A DNA stretch of 59,090 nucleotides, taken from NCBI GenBank assembly GCA_018005585.1, contig JAGMZX010000018.1, positions 1 through 59,090 of the forward strand, in the 5' to 3' direction. The notes beneath the pieces were generated by a model. That model was not told the origin of the DNA, searched no databases, and saw nothing but the letters and a program-made list of their open reading frames with translations. This document shows, one piece after another, positions 11,900-19,069 of the stretch (within the stretch, counting starts at the first letter, position 1; each line of letters starts with the position of its first letter). The translations under genes and the position numbers were made by a program. The DNA comes from Candidatus Hydrogenedentota bacterium. Its GTDB lineage: Bacteria > Hydrogenedentota > Hydrogenedentia > Hydrogenedentales > JAGMZX01.

Positions 11900-12116
11900 G
11901 CGTTCACCCGCGCGGGTACGCGCGGGCGGAATGCGGCCGTTGTTCGGGTCTTTGCCGCTGTCTCAATAGGAACCAGGGACGAACGTCCGGGAATCCGCAT
12001 TCAAGGCCCTCTGCCAGCACCTGCCTGTGGCGTCCCTGCTTCCCACGGTTTTCCGGGAAGATTGCCGGCGCGGAAGCGGCCCGTGCTACTATCGCGTCAC
12101 CCTGGGAGTTCCACTC

Positions 12117-14063
12117 ATGCCGCAACATGCACTGTCGCGATTGTCCTGGACCCTCGAGGGCTGGCGACCCTATGCCTGGATGCTCGGCCGCAAGCCCGGC
12201 GCAAGTCACATCCAGGCGGATATCGCGCCGGTTTCGGCGCGCGTGCCGGGGTCGGTGCAGGCCGCGCTGCTGGCGGCGGGGCTGCTGCCGGACTGGCATC
12301 TGGGCGTGCATTCGCGGGACTGTGAATGGGTCGAGCACCGGCACTGGCTTTTTGAAACCACGATACCGGCGGCGTGGACGCCGCCGGGCGAACAGGCCGT
12401 GCTCGTTGCGGAAGGCCTGGATTACGCGGGCTGGGTCCTCGTGGACAACGTGGAGGTTGCGCGGTTCGCGGGCGCGCTGGCGCCGCACCGGTTCGACCTG
12501 ACAGCCCAGATCAGCGACGGCCGGCCGCACCGGCTCAGCATCTGTTTCGATGAGGCCCCGCCCGAGCAGGGGCAGATCGGATATTCCTCGCGTTCGCGCT
12601 ACTTCAAGCCGCGCTATCCCTACAGTTGGGACTGGTGCCCGCGGCTCGTGCCCGTTGGCGTCTGGGACGCGCTTTGCCTGGAAACGGGGTCAAGCGCGGC
12701 ATTCCGCCTTGACCGCGTTCGCGCCACGCTCGCCGGGGACTACGCCACGGGCCGTATCGAGGCCGCGGTCGGCACCGAAAGTCCCGCGGCGGAAGGCATG
12801 ACGGTCCATGCAATTCTCCTGGATGGCGAGCGGGAATGCGGGCGCGCGCGGGCCCCGCTCGAACAAGCTGGCGCGACGGTGGCGCTGGACGGCCTCGCCG
12901 TGCAACCGTGGTGGCCAAACGGCGCGGGAGAGCAGAAACTGTACACCCTCGAAGTCCGCGTCGTGGATGCGCACGGAGCGCCTGTCTGGCGCGCGGAGCG
13001 TCAGGCCGGGTTCCGGCATATCGCGTGGCGCGCGTGCGAGGCCGCCCCCGAAGGGGCGCTGCCCTGGATTTGCGAGGTGAACGGAACGCCGGTCTTCCTG
13101 CAGGGCGCGAACTGGGTGCCGCCGCGCATCGCCTACCATGACGTTACAGAGGAAGACTACCGTGCGCTCATCGGCCTGTACCGGGAAATGGGCTGCAATG
13201 CGCTGCGCGTTTGGGGCGGCGGCATTCTCGAAAAGGAGACCTTCTACGACCTGTGCGACCAGGCAGGCATCTTCGTATGGCAGGAATTCCCGCTGTCTTC
13301 GTCCGGCGTGGAGAACCTGCCCCCGGACTGCCCGGAGGCGATAGCAACGCTCGCCGGCATCGCGCGTTCGTACATCGCGAGGCGCGCCCATCACGCGTCG
13401 CTGCTGCTGTGGTGCGGCGGCAACGAACTCACGCTTGCGGACGCCTCGCCCGTGGACGCGTCGCATCCGTGCATTGCGGCGCTGCGGCGTGTAGTCGAGG
13501 AGGAAGACCCCGGGCGCCGGTTTCTCCCCACGTCGCCGAGCGGACCCGAGTTTTACGCGCACGCAGCCGCGTACGGCAAGGGACGGCACCACGACATCCA
13601 CGGGCCGTGGGGCATGGCCGGGTTCGCCGGCCTGGAAGCGTGGCGCGCGTACTGGGAGGGCGACGACGCGCTGTTCCGTTCCGAAGTCGGCATGCCCGGC
13701 GCAATGGACGCGGACCTGATCCTGAAATACGCGGACGGCATGGCCTGCTGGCCGCCGGAGGGCGAATACTGGGGGCATACAGCTGCGTGGTGGACGCAGT
13801 GGGACCGGCTGCAGGCGCAGTTTGAACACATGGGTCCGGAGGCGGGGCTGCGCGCATACGTGCAACAGACACAGGCGTATCAGGCGGCGGCTTACGCGGT
13901 TGCGGCGGCTTGCTGCAAACAGCGCTTCCCGAAGTGCGGCGGGTTCCTCATCTGGATGGGTCACGACTGCTTCCCCTGCCCCGCCAACAACTCCGTTATC
14001 GATTTCGAGCGCCGGCCCAAGCCGGCATATTTCGCGCTGCAGCAGGTCTTTCTGCGGCGGTAG
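12117..14063 (+). CDS. Glycoside hydrolase family 2 (beta-mannosidase-like)
   Basis: EGLDY, YSWDW.PRL, FLQGANWVP, CNALRVWGGG, WQEFPLS, WCGGNE (acid/base), SEVGMPG (nucleophile region). Confidence 0.88.
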   Translation: MPQHALSRLSWTLEGWRPYAWMLGRKPGASHIQADIAPVSARVPGSVQAALLAAGLLPDWHLGVHSRDCEWVEHRHWLFETTIPAAWTPPGEQAVLVAEGLDYAGWVLVDNVEVARFAGALAPHRFDLTAQISDGRPHRLSICFDEAPPEQGQIGYSSRSRYFKPRYPYSWDWCPRLVPVGVWDALCLETGSSAAFRLDRVRATLAGDYATGRIEAAVGTESPAAEGMTVHAILLDGERECGRARAPLEQAGATVALDGLAVQPWWPNGAGEQKLYTLEVRVVDAHGAPVWRAERQAGFRHIAWRACEAAPEGALPWICEVNGTPVFLQGANWVPPRIAYHDVTEEDYRALIGLYREMGCNALRVWGGGILEKETFYDLCDQAGIFVWQEFPLSSSGVENLPPDCPEAIATLAGIARSYIARRAHHASLLLWCGGNELTLADASPVDASHPCIAALRRVVEEEDPGRRFLPTSPSGPEFYAHAAAYGKGRHHDIHGPWGMAGFAGLEAWRAYWEGDDALFRSEVGMPGAMDADLILKYADGMACWPPEGEYWGHTAAWWTQWDRLQAQFEHMGPEAGLRAYVQQTQAYQAAAYAVAAACCKQRFPKCGGFLIWMGHDCFPCPANNSVIDFERRPKPAYFALQQVFLRR

Positions 14064-14072
14064 GAAACGGGT

Positions 14073-15275
14073 TCAGCCTGCGTGCTCGAGCACGATCTTT
14101 ATGGCGCCGGTGCGGCCCTTGTGGAGAAACGCCTTCGCGGCGTCCTTGTAGCGCGCCATGGGGAAGCGGTGGGTGATGATGTCGGCGGGGTCCACCGCGT
14201 TCGTGAGCAGCATATCCGCGGCGATGTCGAAAGAAGTCCGGCCATCGGCTTCCGAGGCGTGGCAGTTGATGCCGGAAACCTGGACTTCCTGCGACCAGAT
14301 GGGCGAGTAGTCGACGCGCCCCGGCTTGAAGTTGATGCCGACCAGCACAATAGCGCCGCCGCCGCGCGCCCAGCGCAGCGCATGTTGCAGCGTCGCGTCG
14401 CTCCCGACCGTGTCGTAAATGCGGTCAAAGCCTCCCAGCAGGATTTCGTTGCCAAAGTGGCCGCGCACGTAACGCGCGCCCGCGGTTTCCGCCACGCGCC
14501 GGTAGAGGCCGGGGCCTTCCTCAATGACCGCCGCACCGTATTTCGCCGCGACCCGCGCCTGGAATGGATAGCGCGCAAGGCAGTGTACCGCGGCGTCCGG
14601 CGCCATGCGCCGCAAGGCCACGACGGCAAGCAGTCCGATGGCGCCGCCGCCGATGACCAGCACGCGTTCGCCCGGCCGCGGGGGCGCCTTGAGCACGCCA
14701 TGCGCGGCGCTTGCGAGCGGCTCTATCAGCACGGCGGCGTCGTTGCTCAGTGCCGGGGGGACGCGAAACGGCTGCGTCCGGTGCATGACCATGTACGGCG
14801 AGAAGCCGCCGCCGGTGTCCCGCAGGGGCAGGCTGCCGCGGCCCAGGTTTTCGCAGAGCATGTAGTTGCCCCGCGCGCATTGCGGGCACGGAGGGGCGTG
14901 CTCCATCTGGAAGCACGACGGCCAGTCGATGCGCAGGACGACGCGATCGCCCGCGGCCAGCCCTTCCACCTCACTTCCGGCCTGGGCCACTTCGCCGACG
15001 AGTTCGTGTCCGAGGAATTTACGATGAATGCCGGGCACGGCCGCGGAAAAGCATTTCGGGTCGAGGTCCATGAACATGAAATGCAGGTCGGTGCCGCATA
15101 GACCGCACTGAATATTGCGAACCTTGAGCCAGCGTTCATTGGGAATCGCGGGCTCGGGCACTTCCGCGTAGCGCAGCGGCGACAACGGGCCGAGCGCTGC
15201 ATAGCGGAAGAGGCGTTCCGCGACTTTGAGGGCCATGACTTTACCGGGACGGTTCTCGAAAAAAAGCGCCTTCAT
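14073..15275 (-). CDS. Zinc-dependent alcohol dehydrogenase family (MDR) oxidoreductase
   Basis: CGLCGTDLH, GHELVG, structural-Zn Cys cluster C..PCPQCARGNYMLC, NAD loop GGGAIG. ATG overlaps the upstream TGA (15272-15275). Confidence 0.88.
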   Translation of the reverse strand: MKALFFENRPGKVMALKVAERLFRYAALGPLSPLRYAEVPEPAIPNERWLKVRNIQCGLCGTDLHFMFMDLDPKCFSAAVPGIHRKFLGHELVGEVAQAGSEVEGLAAGDRVVLRIDWPSCFQMEHAPPCPQCARGNYMLCENLGRGSLPLRDTGGGFSPYMVMHRTQPFRVPPALSNDAAVLIEPLASAAHGVLKAPPRPGERVLVIGGGAIGLLAVVALRRMAPDAAVHCLARYPFQARVAAKYGAAVIEEGPGLYRRVAETAGARYVRGHFGNEILLGGFDRIYDTVGSDATLQHALRWARGGGAIVLVGINFKPGRVDYSPIWSQEVQVSGINCHASEADGRTSFDIAADMLLTNAVDPADIITHRFPMARYKDAAKAFLHKGRTGAIKIVLEHAG

Positions 15276-16477
15276 AGGCACGCCTGGACCGCCGCGACAA
15301 TGGCGTCCGCTTCGTCCGCCGTGAGCAACAGGCTCGGGCGCAGCACGACGGCGTGCCGCGCCACCGCACCCGGGAGCACAAGCAGGCCGTTTGAAGCGGC
15401 GCGGCGGCAGAACTCGCGGGCCGATTCTTCCGTGCCGCAGTCCAGCGACAGCGCGAGACCGGTCCCGGCGGCGTCGCGGAAAGGCGCGCCGGGCCGCGCC
15501 GCGATCCCGCGCAGCGCGTCGAGCAGCCGCGCGCCCATCGCGGCCGCGTTGCGCCACGGCTCGAGGCGCGCGTAGGCCTCGAGGGTCTTCAGACCGACCC
15601 GGCACCCGATATCCGACCCGCCGAAGGTCGAGAGGTGAATCATGGGATGCGCGTTCATGAAACGGTTAACCTCCTGCGTCAGCAGGGTCGCCGCGATGGG
15701 AAACACGCCGCCGCCGAGCGCTTCGCCCAAGACAAGGATGTCCGGCGAGATGCCGAGCGCCCCGTACGCGAACCGTGCGCCCGTGCGCCCGAAATTGGTC
15801 TGTGTCTCATCCGCCACGAGCAGCGCGCCGGTCTTGCGGCACGCGCGTTCTATCGCCAGCGCATACTCGGGCGAGACGGCGCGGCAGTGGTTCTCGACCT
15901 GCACCGGCTCGAAGATGAACGCCGCGGTCTTTGGCGTGATCGCCGCCTCGATCGCGTCCGAATCGCCGAAGGGCACGGTGCGCACCTCGGGGACCAGCGG
16001 TCCAAAACGCTGCTTGTCCGCGCGGTCGGACAGCGTGAGCGCGAATCCCGTGTGCCCGTACCAGCCGCCGTCCACGGTGACCAGTTCCGCGCGGCCGGTG
16101 TGGCCCCGGGCGGCCTTGCACGCGAATTCCATCGCTTCGCCGCGCATGACGCTGTACACCGCGCATTCGAGCGGCCCCGGCACGAACGTCGCGAGCGCTT
16201 CCGCCAGGCGCGACTTCTCGACCGAGATCATCGGGAAGTTGCCTTGGTCCGTCTCGCGCATGGCGGCGCGCAGCGCCTCGATGAGTTCCGGCGGGCGCCG
16301 CCCGAGGTTGTACGTGCCCGCGCCGCAGACGCAGTCGAGATACCGGCGGTCGGCGGTGTCCCAGACCCACGCCCCCTCGCGCTTGCCTTCGAAGAAATCG
16401 TGGCCCATGGCGCGCAACCACTCCAGCCGGCCCTGCGCCAGGCCGGGACACACAGCGGCGGGGAATGCCTGGTTCAT
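15272..16477 (-). CDS. Class-III aminotransferase-fold protein lacking the PLP Schiff-base lysine (Glu at that position)
   Basis: FIFEPVQVE, ADETQTNFGRTG, DILVLGEALGGG (consensus GKxLGGG), HLSTFGGS. Start overlaps the upstream TGA (ATGA 16474-16477). Confidence 0.88.
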   Translation of the reverse strand: MNQAFPAAVCPGLAQGRLEWLRAMGHDFFEGKREGAWVWDTADRRYLDCVCGAGTYNLGRRPPELIEALRAAMRETDQGNFPMISVEKSRLAEALATFVPGPLECAVYSVMRGEAMEFACKAARGHTGRAELVTVDGGWYGHTGFALTLSDRADKQRFGPLVPEVRTVPFGDSDAIEAAITPKTAAFIFEPVQVENHCRAVSPEYALAIERACRKTGALLVADETQTNFGRTGARFAYGALGISPDILVLGEALGGGVFPIAATLLTQEVNRFMNAHPMIHLSTFGGSDIGCRVGLKTLEAYARLEPWRNAAAMGARLLDALRGIAARPGAPFRDAAGTGLALSLDCGTEESAREFCRRAASNGLLVLPGAVARHAVVLRPSLLLTADEADAIVAAVQACL

Positions 16478-17883
16478 GACACGCGCCTCCGCGAGGGCAT
16501 CCATTCCTCGATGCTGCGCAACAGGCCGAACAAGGCCATCTGTGCCCTTTCGTTATTGAGCAGCCGGAGCACGCCGGGGACTCTGACGGCGAGCAGGGCC
16601 GCGGGCAGCAGCGTCATCATGTCGCGCACGGATTCCCGGATAGCGGCGATGACCTCTTCGAGTTCCGCCTCGCTCACCGTGATTGGGACCATGAAACGCA
16701 TGACTTGCGGCGCATTGCCCGAGTAGGCGGCGAAGACGCCATGCCGCGCAAGCGCGTCGGACATCATGGGCCCCATGAATTCGTGCACATACTCGATGCC
16801 GACCATGAGCCCGAGCCCGCGCACGGCGCGCACGATCCGCGGGTTTTCGTCGCGCAGGTCTTCCAGGGCCTGTCTCAGGCGCGCACCGCGCCGCGCCGCG
16901 TTCTCCCACAAGCGCGTTTCCTCGATGTATTCGAGCACGCGCAAGGCGACGCGGCAACCCAGGTCCGTCCCGCCGCCCCACGTCTCGTGGAACAGCGGGT
17001 TGCGGTCCACGAAGTCCGTCAGGACGGGCACGGGCCGGTATACGGCCGCCGCCATGGGGTAGAGGCCGCCGCCCAGCGATTTCGCGACGGTCATGATGTC
17101 CGGGACTACGTTCGCATGTTCACTGGCGAAGAGACGCCCGGTGCGCCCGAAACCGGTCTGAATTTCGTCAAATATCAGGAGAACGCCCTGTTGGTCGCAG
17201 AGGTTGCGCACCCCTTCGAGATAGGCGGCGCCGGCGGGAAAGATGCCAGCTTCGCCCTGGACCGGCTCGAGAAGCACGGCGGCGGTCCGGTCCGACACAC
17301 GCGCGCGCATCGCGCCAAGATCGTTGAACGGCACAAAGGTGAAATCCGGCATGAGCGGTTCGCAGTAATGACGGTAATGCGCCTTGCCGTTGGCGGACAG
17401 CGCGAATCCGGTGTGGCCGTGGTACGCCTTCACCGTCGCGACGATCTCGCTGCGCCCGGTCGCGCCGCGCGCGAGCTTAATCGCGCAGTCGATCGCATCG
17501 CCGCCGCCCGCCGCAAAAAGAACCTGATTCAGGTCGCCGGGCGCGAGCGCGGCCAATTTCGCCGCGAGCGCCAGTTTGGCCGGCGAAACCATGTGAAACG
17601 CGCCCATGTCGAGGTCGTTCAGAGCCGCGTCCAGCGCGTCCATGACGGACGGATTGTGACGGGATACGTTGAAGCAGCCGGCGGCAGTGAAACAGTCGTA
17701 CATGCGCCGGCCCGATGCGGCGTCCCGGAATCCGACGCCTTCCCGGTCCGTTTCTACGACGTCCAGGTGTCCCGCGCGCAGATACTTCATCTGACCGCGG
17801 TTGAGGTAGCGCGAGAACCGGGCCACGAGGCTGGCCTTTTCCGCCTGGGTCATGCGTGGCCCCGGCGGTGTGGTGCTGGACAT
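16474..17883 (-). CDS. Class-III PLP aminotransferase (putrescine/acetylornithine aminotransferase-like), catalytic Lys present
   Basis: AYHGHT, LLEPVQGEAGI, FDEIQTGFGRTG, DIMTVAKSLGGG (K268). Confidence 0.9.
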   Translation of the reverse strand: MSSTTPPGPRMTQAEKASLVARFSRYLNRGQMKYLRAGHLDVVETDREGVGFRDAASGRRMYDCFTAAGCFNVSRHNPSVMDALDAALNDLDMGAFHMVSPAKLALAAKLAALAPGDLNQVLFAAGGGDAIDCAIKLARGATGRSEIVATVKAYHGHTGFALSANGKAHYRHYCEPLMPDFTFVPFNDLGAMRARVSDRTAAVLLEPVQGEAGIFPAGAAYLEGVRNLCDQQGVLLIFDEIQTGFGRTGRLFASEHANVVPDIMTVAKSLGGGLYPMAAAVYRPVPVLTDFVDRNPLFHETWGGGTDLGCRVALRVLEYIEETRLWENAARRGARLRQALEDLRDENPRIVRAVRGLGLMVGIEYVHEFMGPMMSDALARHGVFAAYSGNAPQVMRFMVPITVSEAELEEVIAAIRESVRDMMTLLPAALLAVRVPGVLRLLNNERAQMALFGLLRSIEEWMPSRRRVS

Positions 17884-17960
17884 GGGTCTTCTCCTCGCTA
17901 CAAGACACAGGGTGATTCTTTCACGCCGGGACGGGGCGGCGCAATGCCGGTCGCGGCGGC

Positions 17961-17989
17961 TTGACCGGGTCGCGCGCCCGTCCCATAAT
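17961..17989 (+). promoter_or_regulatory. Sigma-70-type promoter for the Gfo/Idh/MocA gene
   Basis: TTGACC-N17-CATAAT, 30 bp upstream of ATG 18020. Confidence 0.65.
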
Positions 17990-18019
17990 GCGCCGGTGCC
18001 GCAAGGGGAGAAAACGCCG

Positions 18020-19069
18020 ATGACCAAGGTGGGCCTGATCGGACTCGGGCGCATTGCCGGCCTGCATCAACTGGGTTACGCGGACTTTCCGGATGCGCGG
18101 ATCCACGCGGTTTGCGACGTGAATGCGGAACTGGCCGAAACGCGCCGCCGCCAGTGGAATGCCGCCAAGTCTTATACGGATTATCGCGCGTTGCTGAGCG
18201 ACCCGGAGATTGACGCGGTCGAGATCGTCACGCCCCAGACCGTGCACGAACCGATGGTCATCGACGCGGCCGCCGCGGGCAAGCACATTGCGGTGCAGAA
18301 ACCCATGACTACGAGCATGGCTGCGGCCGACCGCATGCTCGATGCCGTGCGCAACGCGGGCGTCCTGTTCAAGGTGACGGACAATTACGTCACGCACCCG
18401 CCCATCGTACTGGCGAAGCGCCTCCTTGGCGAGGGGCTCATCGGCGACCCGATTATGCTGCGCATGAAATTCGTCGGAGGGCAATGGGAAGGCGGCTGGC
18501 AGGTGCCGCCGGACACGTGGGCCTGGCGGCGCGAGGAAGTCGCGCGCGGCCGTGGTATCCAGACCTTTGACCACGGCCACCACATGTGGGCTACCGCGTG
18601 GTTCCTGATGGGTGAGATCGAGCGTGTCGTGGCGTGGATCGATTGGACCAGCGAGTTCATCGACTGTCCCGCGGTGATCATGTGGAAGTACAAAGACGCG
18701 AAACGGTACGGCACGTGCGACTACACGCAGGCTGTCGATCTCCAAATCCCGACGCGGTATTATTCGTGCGACGAATGGTTCGAGGTCACGGGCAGCCGGG
18801 GCATCCTCCTCGTGCGCCGCTGCACGGGCAATATCCTGGATGGCCCGCCGGTCAGCACGTTTACAAACGACGGCTGGAAACATTATGACGTGCCTTCCGA
18901 CTGGGCGGAAGGCTTCCGCGGCGCCACGCGCAACTTCATCCGCGCGGTCCAGGGCCGCGAAACGCCGCTGCTCACGGGCCAACAGGCCCGGGAGGTACTG
19001 CGGTTCGCCTTCGCATTGCGGAAATCCGCGGACGAACGCCGCGAGATTGCCTTGGACGAAATCGCGTAG
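18020..19069 (+). CDS. Gfo/Idh/MocA family oxidoreductase (cytoplasmic)
   Basis: VGLIGLGRIA, DAVEIVTP, KHIAVQKPM, FDHGHH. Confidence 0.9.
   Translation: MTKVGLIGLGRIAGLHQLGYADFPDARIHAVCDVNAELAETRRRQWNAAKSYTDYRALLSDPEIDAVEIVTPQTVHEPMVIDAAAAGKHIAVQKPMTTSMAAADRMLDAVRNAGVLFKVTDNYVTHPPIVLAKRLLGEGLIGDPIMLRMKFVGGQWEGGWQVPPDTWAWRREEVARGRGIQTFDHGHHMWATAWFLMGEIERVVAWIDWTSEFIDCPAVIMWKYKDAKRYGTCDYTQAVDLQIPTRYYSCDEWFEVTGSRGILLVRRCTGNILDGPPVSTFTNDGWKHYDVPSDWAEGFRGATRNFIRAVQGRETPLLTGQQAREVLRFAFALRKSADERREIALDEIA

Follow-up and report, generated by a model that had tools for sequence, protein, structure and literature searches.

Class-III aminotransferases, which include the ornithine, gamma-aminobutyrate (GABA), putrescine and omega-amine enzymes, are textbook homodimers and widely used biocatalysts. 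Serine palmitoyltransferase (SPT) is built from two homologous fold-type-I subunits, LCB1 and LCB2, one of which carries the lysine for pyridoxal phosphate (PLP) while the other contributes residues to a single site (PMC3794620). In SerTA, the Ser4/Ser5 enzyme of Serratia sp. ATCC 39006, each heterodimer likewise has just one active site, whose activity requires residues from the inactive chain (PMC11726168, FEBS Lett 2024); its authors describe it as the first heterooligomeric aminotransferase to be studied (PMC11726168). Here we analyse a stretch of 59,090 nucleotides from a Candidatus Hydrogenedentota bacterium (contig JAGMZX010000018.1 of assembly GCA_018005585.1; hereafter the window), in which two adjacent genes, AT-1 and AT-2, encode paralogous class-III aminotransferases and only AT-1 has the PLP lysine. 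Their reciprocal loss of active-site residues and their inseparable pairing suggest that the two proteins are subunits of a class-III aminotransferase, obligately alpha/beta, in which each dimer has one working active site, a reading to which we assign a probability of roughly 0.7.

A coupled gene pair with a single Schiff-base lysine

AT-1 (16474-17883, 469 amino acids), AT-2 (15272-16477, 401 amino acids) and a Zn-dependent medium-chain dehydrogenase (14073-15275, 400 amino acids) are three head-to-tail genes on the minus strand, to which all coordinates within this cassette refer. An earlier note on this DNA had described them as joined by ATGA overlaps, and both junctions were confirmed: the stop of AT-1 overlaps the start of AT-2 at 16474-16477 (gtgtcATGAacc), and the stop of AT-2 overlaps the start of the dehydrogenase at 15272-15275 (cctATGAagg).

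Both aminotransferases belong to the class-III fold over practically its whole length. AT-1 matches the Pfam model PF00202 with 279.7 bits (cut-off 30.5; E 4e-83; model positions 16-401 of 403) and AT-2 with 217.5 bits (E 3e-64; model positions 13-403 of 403), and the two share 36% identity. Among solved proteins, their best relatives are E. coli YgjG, the Thermus acetylornithine/LysJ aminotransferase and PigE. For AT-1 the best of these is YgjG, a putrescine aminotransferase (E 1e-71). An AlphaFold2 model of AT-2, with a predicted local distance difference test score (pLDDT) of 90.7, reaches a template modelling score (TM-score) of 0.93 to the same enzyme. Neither protein falls within the putrescine aminotransferase equivalogs (NF008570/TIGR03372), against which AT-1 scores 309.8 and AT-2 198 for a cut-off of 612. 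More generally, no NCBIfam model reaches its cut-off for AT-1, AT-2 or the dehydrogenase.

The decisive difference between the two lies at the Schiff-base position. By translation, AT-1 carries DIMTVAKSLGGG with Lys268 (codon at 17080-17082, in TVAKSLGGG), whereas AT-2 carries DILVLGEALGGG with Glu252, encoded by GAA at 15722-15724, exactly as the earlier note had read them. A search of 5.8 billion proteins for AT-2 homologues gave 488 matches at E <= 1e-20, the best 120 of which (50-99% identity) were aligned with the window's own protein. The lysine column was Glu in 121 out of 121, and the R-G-E loop, D-E-T-Q and H-L-S-T-F were conserved together with it. Glu also occupies this position in all 57 genome pairs compared, and the lysine of AT-1 is as constant (121/121 homologues, 57/57 pairs). 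Of the top 150 clusters in a library with a 50% identity threshold, about 10 belong to the Glu clade, and 136 of the others have Lys. The GAA codon shows no variant in contigs from four metagenome runs of four studies (wastewater, sludge and digester), the best DNA holder among which may be the window's own assembly sample. Glu252 is real and ancient. The earlier note had argued that it was no single error and had proposed, as a check, asking whether orthologous pairs conserve a residue other than Lys; the homologues, the genome pairs and the four runs bear this out, with Glu in all pairs and no Lys-bearing orthologue.

AT-2 is also constrained and under purifying selection rather than decaying. 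The ratio of nonsynonymous to synonymous substitution rates (dN/dS), another check that had been proposed, is about 0.24-0.29 for AT-2 and 0.15-0.21 for AT-1 and the dehydrogenase, rough figures given that dS is saturated. Across the 57 genomes, 86 columns of AT-2 and 111 of AT-1 are conserved at 93% or more.

To follow the pair beyond the window, one genome per prokaryotic species was scanned. An AT-2 relative was present in 191 species, and the best 80 loci were examined. These carry the labels Hydrogenedentota, Desulfobacterota, Spirochaetota/Leptospirales, Myxococcota, Bacteriovoracaceae, Nitrospirota, Thermoleophilia and Thermovirgaceae, and among the carriers Desulfoluna limicola, D. butyratoxydans and Desulfosudis oleivorans are in culture. 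Wherever a locus includes upstream DNA, AT-2 is immediately preceded by an AT-1 orthologue on the same strand, and the most frequent spacing is the 4-nucleotide ATGA overlap (23 of 56 pairs). Within Hydrogenedentota, the phylum of the window, AT-1 and AT-2 occur in the same 18 of 135 genomes, apart from a single 71%-complete genome that has a fragment of AT-1 at a contig end. Since the flanking genes differ completely between lineages in the loci compared, the pair travels as a unit.

Phylogenetic analysis gave a concordant picture. The AT-1 and AT-2 clades are each monophyletic (100/100) with congruent internal topologies, the branches of AT-2 being some 1.5-2 times longer than those of AT-1, and the pairwise identities of the two proteins are correlated (r = 0.83, Mantel p = 0.001). 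An origin by simple tandem duplication is not borne out by the tree, which does not make AT-1 and AT-2 sisters, with the reservation that its deep nodes are weak (87/81).

Reciprocal losses at a proposed shared active site

In human ornithine aminotransferase (OAT), Ser321 and Thr322 are supplied by the neighbouring subunit. PLP is bound there by Lys292, Asp263, Phe177, Gln266 and Gly142 together with Ser321/Thr322, a set that spans both subunits, and the substrate switch consists of Arg413/Glu235 (PMC13327489); that review is the source of the roles given below for canonical class-III residues.

AT-1 has the complete set of PLP residues in its own pocket. The Schiff-base Lys268, Asp239 (pyridine N), Gln242 (O3'), the stacking aromatic Tyr154 and the phosphate-loop Gly127 are each present in 57 of 57 genome pairs, as are Glu211 and Arg396. 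What AT-1 has lost is the loop that a class-III subunit lends to its partner. Its HETWGGG (residues 299-305, 16969-16989) is a decayed H-x-S-T-F-G-G in which Trp302 aligns with the partner-donated Thr, both in the alignment to YgjG and in that to AT-2, a feature that goes beyond the earlier note. The Thr column (Y, H, S, T, V, M and W) and the Phe column of this loop vary among orthologues, so that neither the window's protein nor the orthologue columns conform to the S/T-T-F/Y-G-G pattern of the class.

AT-2 presents the converse. Its HLSTFGG (residues 281-287, 15617-15637), which corresponds to Ser321/Thr322 of human OAT, is intact, with Thr284 in 57 and Phe285 in 56 of the 57 pairs; the residues lent to the partner are kept precisely where the columns of AT-1 are variable. 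By contrast, several features of a competent class-III pocket are missing besides the lysine. The phosphate-loop Gly, which is Gly142 in human OAT and Gly127 in AT-1 (Gly in 57/57), is replaced by Arg112 (16142-16144; Arg in 57/57), S-G-T/S-E-A having become x-R-G-E-A. The column of the canonical carboxylate-binding Arg holds Val378 (V/L/I in the family), with an invariant Arg380 two residues on. The Q-G-E-G-G loop has turned into Q-(A/V)-E-N-x-C, and the ring-stacking residue is relaxed (Trp in 38, Cys in 12 and Tyr in 3 of the 57 pairs). The divergent motifs listed in the earlier note (MRGEA, WYG and DETQTN, next to a retained STFGG) were all found.

In a heterodimer, the two interface sites would be very different. 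The combination of AT-1 pocket and AT-2 loop is complete and invariant over the 57 pairs, whereas the mirror combination of AT-2 pocket and AT-1 loop has neither lysine nor phosphate-loop Gly, canonical carboxylate Arg or partner Thr, though it keeps Asp223, Gln226 and Glu195. An AT-1 homodimer would be devoid of the donated Thr at both of its sites, and an AT-2 homodimer of the lysine at both. We propose that the working site would consist of Lys268, Asp239, Gln242, Tyr154 and the Gly127 loop of AT-1 together with the Ser283-Thr284-Phe285 loop of AT-2. The mirror site would be dead for transamination, owing to Glu252, Arg112, Val/Leu/Ile at the carboxylate Arg and the Q-x-E-N-x-C loop of AT-2, and AT-1 no longer conserves a Thr-Phe to lend to it. 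An alpha2-beta2 assembly is possible. The suggestion of the earlier note that AT-2 is a non-catalytic partner completing the site of AT-1 thus gains support from the reciprocal losses and from the inseparability of the pair.

The C terminus of AT-1 is another distinctive trait of the family. An extension of about 50 residues, hydrophobic to amphipathic (residues ~420-469, 16477-16626), is missing from AT-2, from YgjG and from canonical class-III enzymes, and the Pfam model ends near AT-1 residue 417. Its consensus, MKxLLPxALxAAKIPGVLxLLNNExVQTxLFxxxRxxE, recurs in every sub-clade, whether or not the dehydrogenase is present, and also in the nearest outgroup pair. The tail is modelled as helices at residues 405-433, 438-442 and 445-461 (pLDDT ~72-78). 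It may, as a weak suggestion, clasp the partner or a membrane surface. A loop at residues 161-180 of AT-1 (17344-17403; ALSANGKxHYRxYCEPLMP) is nearly invariant in the family, yet among the internal parts of the monomer model it has the lowest confidence (pLDDT 53-65); its ordering may depend on complex formation or on substrate binding. Long low-complexity C-terminal extensions occur in some members of the family: one AT-2 homologue of 504 amino acids (P0245) has a histone-H1-like (HC2) tail, and the AT-1 of a Thermoleophilia locus (L056) has an Ala/Arg-rich extension of about 300 amino acids, as delimited by a naive open reading frame call.

Several points weigh against an obligate heterodimer with a single site and a defined role. 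The complex is predicted from comparative evidence. AT-2 retains Asp223, Glu224, Gln226 and Glu195 and has an Arg shifted by two residues from its usual place, so that some ligand may still be bound in its pocket. Because some class-III enzymes accept Ser or other residues in place of the Thr, an AT-1 homodimer could keep some activity. The dN/dS values are rough, dS being saturated. No AT-1::AT-2 fusion was found among the seven longer proteins checked within the top 150 representatives; in these a different domain is present (APH kinase, DUF6206, aldehyde dehydrogenase, SBP_bac_3) or Pfam shows no second one (P0259, P0277). Finally, gene context is the basis for what is proposed on the substrate, on the reaction's direction and on the part played by the Zn-dehydrogenase, and some members of the family have a disrupted dehydrogenase or none.

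The best-surviving alternative accepts the heteromer and gives the remodelled AT-2 pocket a function of its own, as a second site that would bind an effector, a substrate or a product, or would retune the specificity of AT-1. Its candidate residues are Arg112, Glu252, Asn196, Cys198, Arg380, Asp223 and Gln226, and hand-over to the dehydrogenase is one example of a role. Arg112 and Glu252 are invariant, where a subunit serving purely as filler should show more drift; conservation of Asn196 and Cys198 is confined to AT-2; and Asp223 and Gln226 are kept. However, the relaxed stacking aromatic (with its 12 Cys among 57) and the loss of the partner Thr speak against bound PLP or pyridoxamine phosphate (PMP), and a salt bridge between Arg112 and Glu252, filling an empty cofactor pocket, would explain the invariance equally well. 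We consider a second functional site unlikely.

It is highly improbable that AT-2 works apart from AT-1, as an independent homodimer performing lysine-independent chemistry with non-covalent PMP or PLP, in the manner of the Lys-less sugar dehydratases ColD and E1, before or after AT-1 in one pathway. Such an enzyme could draw on the invariant contacts to the pyridine N and O3' (Asp223 and Gln226), on Glu252 as a general base and on its own S-T-F loop, which would serve a homodimer. Yet AT-1 would then be left as a homodimer without donated Thr, though its other PLP residues are invariant. The change of the phosphate-loop Gly to Arg, the displaced carboxylate Arg and the non-conserved stacking residue of AT-2 also tell against this reading. 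Moreover, the co-occurrence within the phylum, with an incomplete genome as its one exception, and the ATGA coupling exceed the pattern usual for consecutive enzymes. An error of sequencing or assembly, or the recent inactivation by mutation of a duplicate in decay, is ruled out to near certainty: GAA and AAA are a single transition apart, but Glu stands in 121 homologues as well as in 57 genomes at species level (from Hydrogenedentota, Desulfobacterota, Spirochaetota, Myxococcota and others), all four runs from the four studies give the same codon, the reading frame is intact and has been conserved, and dN/dS is well below 1.

If AT-1 and AT-2 do form an alpha/beta enzyme, they may not be the only pair of this kind. 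A second Lys-less class-III clade, with Arg or His in place of Lys (P0257, P0270 and P0276), lies in tandem with a Lys-bearing paralogue, the gene order being reversed. At one such locus (L087:552-3061), P0270 (Lys to Arg) precedes a Lys-bearing paralogue of 426 amino acids; P0270 keeps H-I-S-T-F-G-G, and its neighbour has Glu at the Thr position (H-S-S-E-Y-G-G). This clade shows the same reciprocal pattern, apparently with an independent origin, which adds to the case for the heterodimer and suggests more than one origin for the architecture. P0251 (L086:192-2833), the outgroup closest to the Glu clade, has the R-G-E loop and yet keeps the Lys, and it is preceded by an AT-1-like gene of 463 amino acids with the same C-terminal tail. 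This pair, in which both subunits are Lys-bearing, may represent an evolutionary intermediate; it is seen on one 3-kb contig. A broader proposal would be that class III has a recurrent hidden alpha/beta architecture, evolved independently in at least two lineages (Lys to Glu, and Lys to Arg/His in P0257, P0270 and P0276), and that the dead pocket of the Glu lineage (Arg112, Glu252, Asn196, Cys198 and Arg380) has taken on a new use as a second functional site, for binding an effector or handing over substrate, beyond that of a plug. Taken as a whole, we regard it as rather doubtful.

Accessory genes and the likely reaction

The dehydrogenase of the window is a member of the medium-chain dehydrogenase/reductase family, with matches to ADH_N (PF08240, 61.3 bits) and ADH_zinc_N (PF00107, 37.5 bits). 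Its sequence and an alignment to 4ej6 reveal a zinc pattern of CGTDLH (Cys60), GHE (His90/Glu91), EPLA and Cys121/130/133/141. Its matches to more specific families are weak and below cut-off, namely to threonine, sorbitol and inosose dehydrogenases. For the L-threonine 3-dehydrogenase models NF003808 and TIGR00692, it scores 119 against a cut-off of 380 and 104 against 458, respectively, and so does not belong to that group.

A dehydrogenase of this kind lies downstream of the pair in 30 of the 80 loci, and in Hydrogenedentota it adjoins the pair in most carriers. Within the phylum, the dehydrogenase beside an intact aminotransferase pair is interrupted by an in-frame stop in two genomes of one genus (TAG in one, TGA in the other) and matches only in part in two others, and in one genome it is located elsewhere. 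One genome of the phylum has an orthologue of the dehydrogenase, and the pair was not detected in it; the interrupted, partial and unpaired copies are G019:C2:31009-32208, G020:C115:9052-10251, G010:C85:51395-52144, G011:C94:5366-6325 and G093:C6:2960-4153. Being present in part of the loci and disrupted in some relatives, the dehydrogenase is an accessory partner and not a constant part of the system. No recurrent flanking gene was found for cassettes of the Zn-dehydrogenase type, the flanks being different in every lineage.

A sister sub-clade that lacks the Zn-dehydrogenase has a different companion. In 16 loci (L031:2918-8694, L040, L060, L066, L074 and about 11 more) an alanine dehydrogenase is encoded directly upstream of AT-1 (TIGR00518, 530 bits versus a cut-off of 392). 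A TetR regulator (19 loci) and proteins of the Amidohydro_2 (7 loci) and Amidohydro_3 (5 loci) families were also seen in this sub-clade. At another locus, on a 5.9-Mb contig (L001:1091-6267), AT-1, AT-2 and the dehydrogenase are preceded by a GntR regulator, an uncharacterised glycyl-radical enzyme with its radical-SAM activase, and a PNPOx-like protein. The glycyl-radical enzyme is below every NCBIfam cut-off, and its best matches are of the hydroxyproline and sulfopropanediol dehydratase types.

As AT-1 keeps the Glu211/Arg396 switch of the omega-amine:2-oxo-acid transaminases (putrescine, ornithine and GABA type), the most likely reaction is amine + 2-oxo acid <-> aldehyde or ketone + amino acid. 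The position of the alanine dehydrogenase directly upstream in the sister sub-clade makes pyruvate/alanine the probable pair of co-substrates. In the window, the Zn-dehydrogenase would interconvert the carbonyl product and an alcohol, giving a net conversion between amine and alcohol. The accessory genes suggest a module, possibly catabolic, that links amine <-> carbonyl <-> alcohol.

The cassette begins with a GAGGAG Shine-Dalgarno sequence at 17891-17896, 7 nucleotides before the ATG of AT-1, which marks the operon start. A search of 13900-18200 against Rfam at E <= 1 revealed no RNA element or riboswitch that could name a ligand, and the locus was present in no RNA run when transcript evidence was sought. 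On the plus strand, a GH2-like glycoside hydrolase (12027-14063) is convergent with the cassette and a Gfo/Idh/MocA oxidoreductase (18017-19069) is divergent from it, with a sigma-70-like promoter match beside the latter (17961-17989). Both neighbours were considered as parts of the system and discarded, their adjacency to the cassette not being conserved elsewhere.

The proposed architecture would have practical consequences. Annotation pipelines label both genes 'aspartate aminotransferase family', and expression of a single gene would probably fail. A substrate pocket shaped by two different chains would be a natural scaffold, useful for the engineering of asymmetric transaminases. The cassette would also represent a so far uncharacterised amine/alcohol module of uncultured anaerobes from digesters and sediments, which the cultured carriers make testable.

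Comparison with known systems

In sequence and fold, the closest solved or curated relatives of both AT-1 and AT-2 are YgjG/PatA of E. coli (PDB 4uox), PigE and the acetylornithine/LysJ enzymes. AT-1 shares the omega-amine transaminase residues with the YgjG group, including the Glu/Arg switch. The members of the YgjG, PigE and LysJ group, however, are homo-oligomers with Lys and T-T-F-G-G in every chain, and they have no tail of the AT-1 type.

The taurine degradation module Tpa-Ald-SarD of anaerobes combines a class-III transaminase, an alanine dehydrogenase that recycles pyruvate and an alcohol dehydrogenase that acts on the aldehyde. The family of the AT cassette shares this gene logic, and one related locus even adds a glycyl-radical enzyme. 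Tpa, on the other hand, is an ordinary Lys-bearing homo-oligomer, the dehydrogenases of its module come from other families, and nothing in the AT cassette indicates a sulfonate substrate.

Lysine-less enzymes with a function of their own are also known. The ColD/E1 3-dehydratases depend on PMP and have a DegT-type fold in which His replaces the Lys and the cofactor pocket is intact. AT-2 does not fit this group: its fold is that of class III, Glu stands where these enzymes have His, the phosphate loop is altered and the stacking residue is relaxed.

LCB1/LCB2 resemble AT-1/AT-2 in that the Lys is present in only one of two homologous subunits. SPT differs in belonging to the alpha-oxoamine synthase family and in being eukaryotic, membrane-bound and equipped with small regulatory subunits, and the bacterial SPTs are homodimers.

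SerTA is the closest described system. Like the pair analysed here, it is encoded by tandem paralogous genes for fold-type-I aminotransferases, one of them without the Schiff-base lysine (PMC11726168). SerTA belongs to the sugar-aminotransferase (DegT-like) group, whereas AT-1/AT-2 are of class III. Ser4 is truncated, without the parts at its N and C termini and without the small domain, whereas AT-2 has a full-length two-domain fold. SerTA is found in a secondary-metabolite cluster of one genus, whereas the AT pair is carried by at least 191 species genomes whose labels span many different phyla. SerTA has been proven biochemically, and AT-1/AT-2 are known here through their sequences.

A full-text literature search found no class-III example of a heteromer with a Lys-less subunit. 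If our interpretation is correct, the principle of LCB1/LCB2 and SerTA would extend to class III. A half-site heteromer is in itself a known principle; what is new here is its proposed occurrence in class III, with a full-length dead subunit and a wide phyletic spread.

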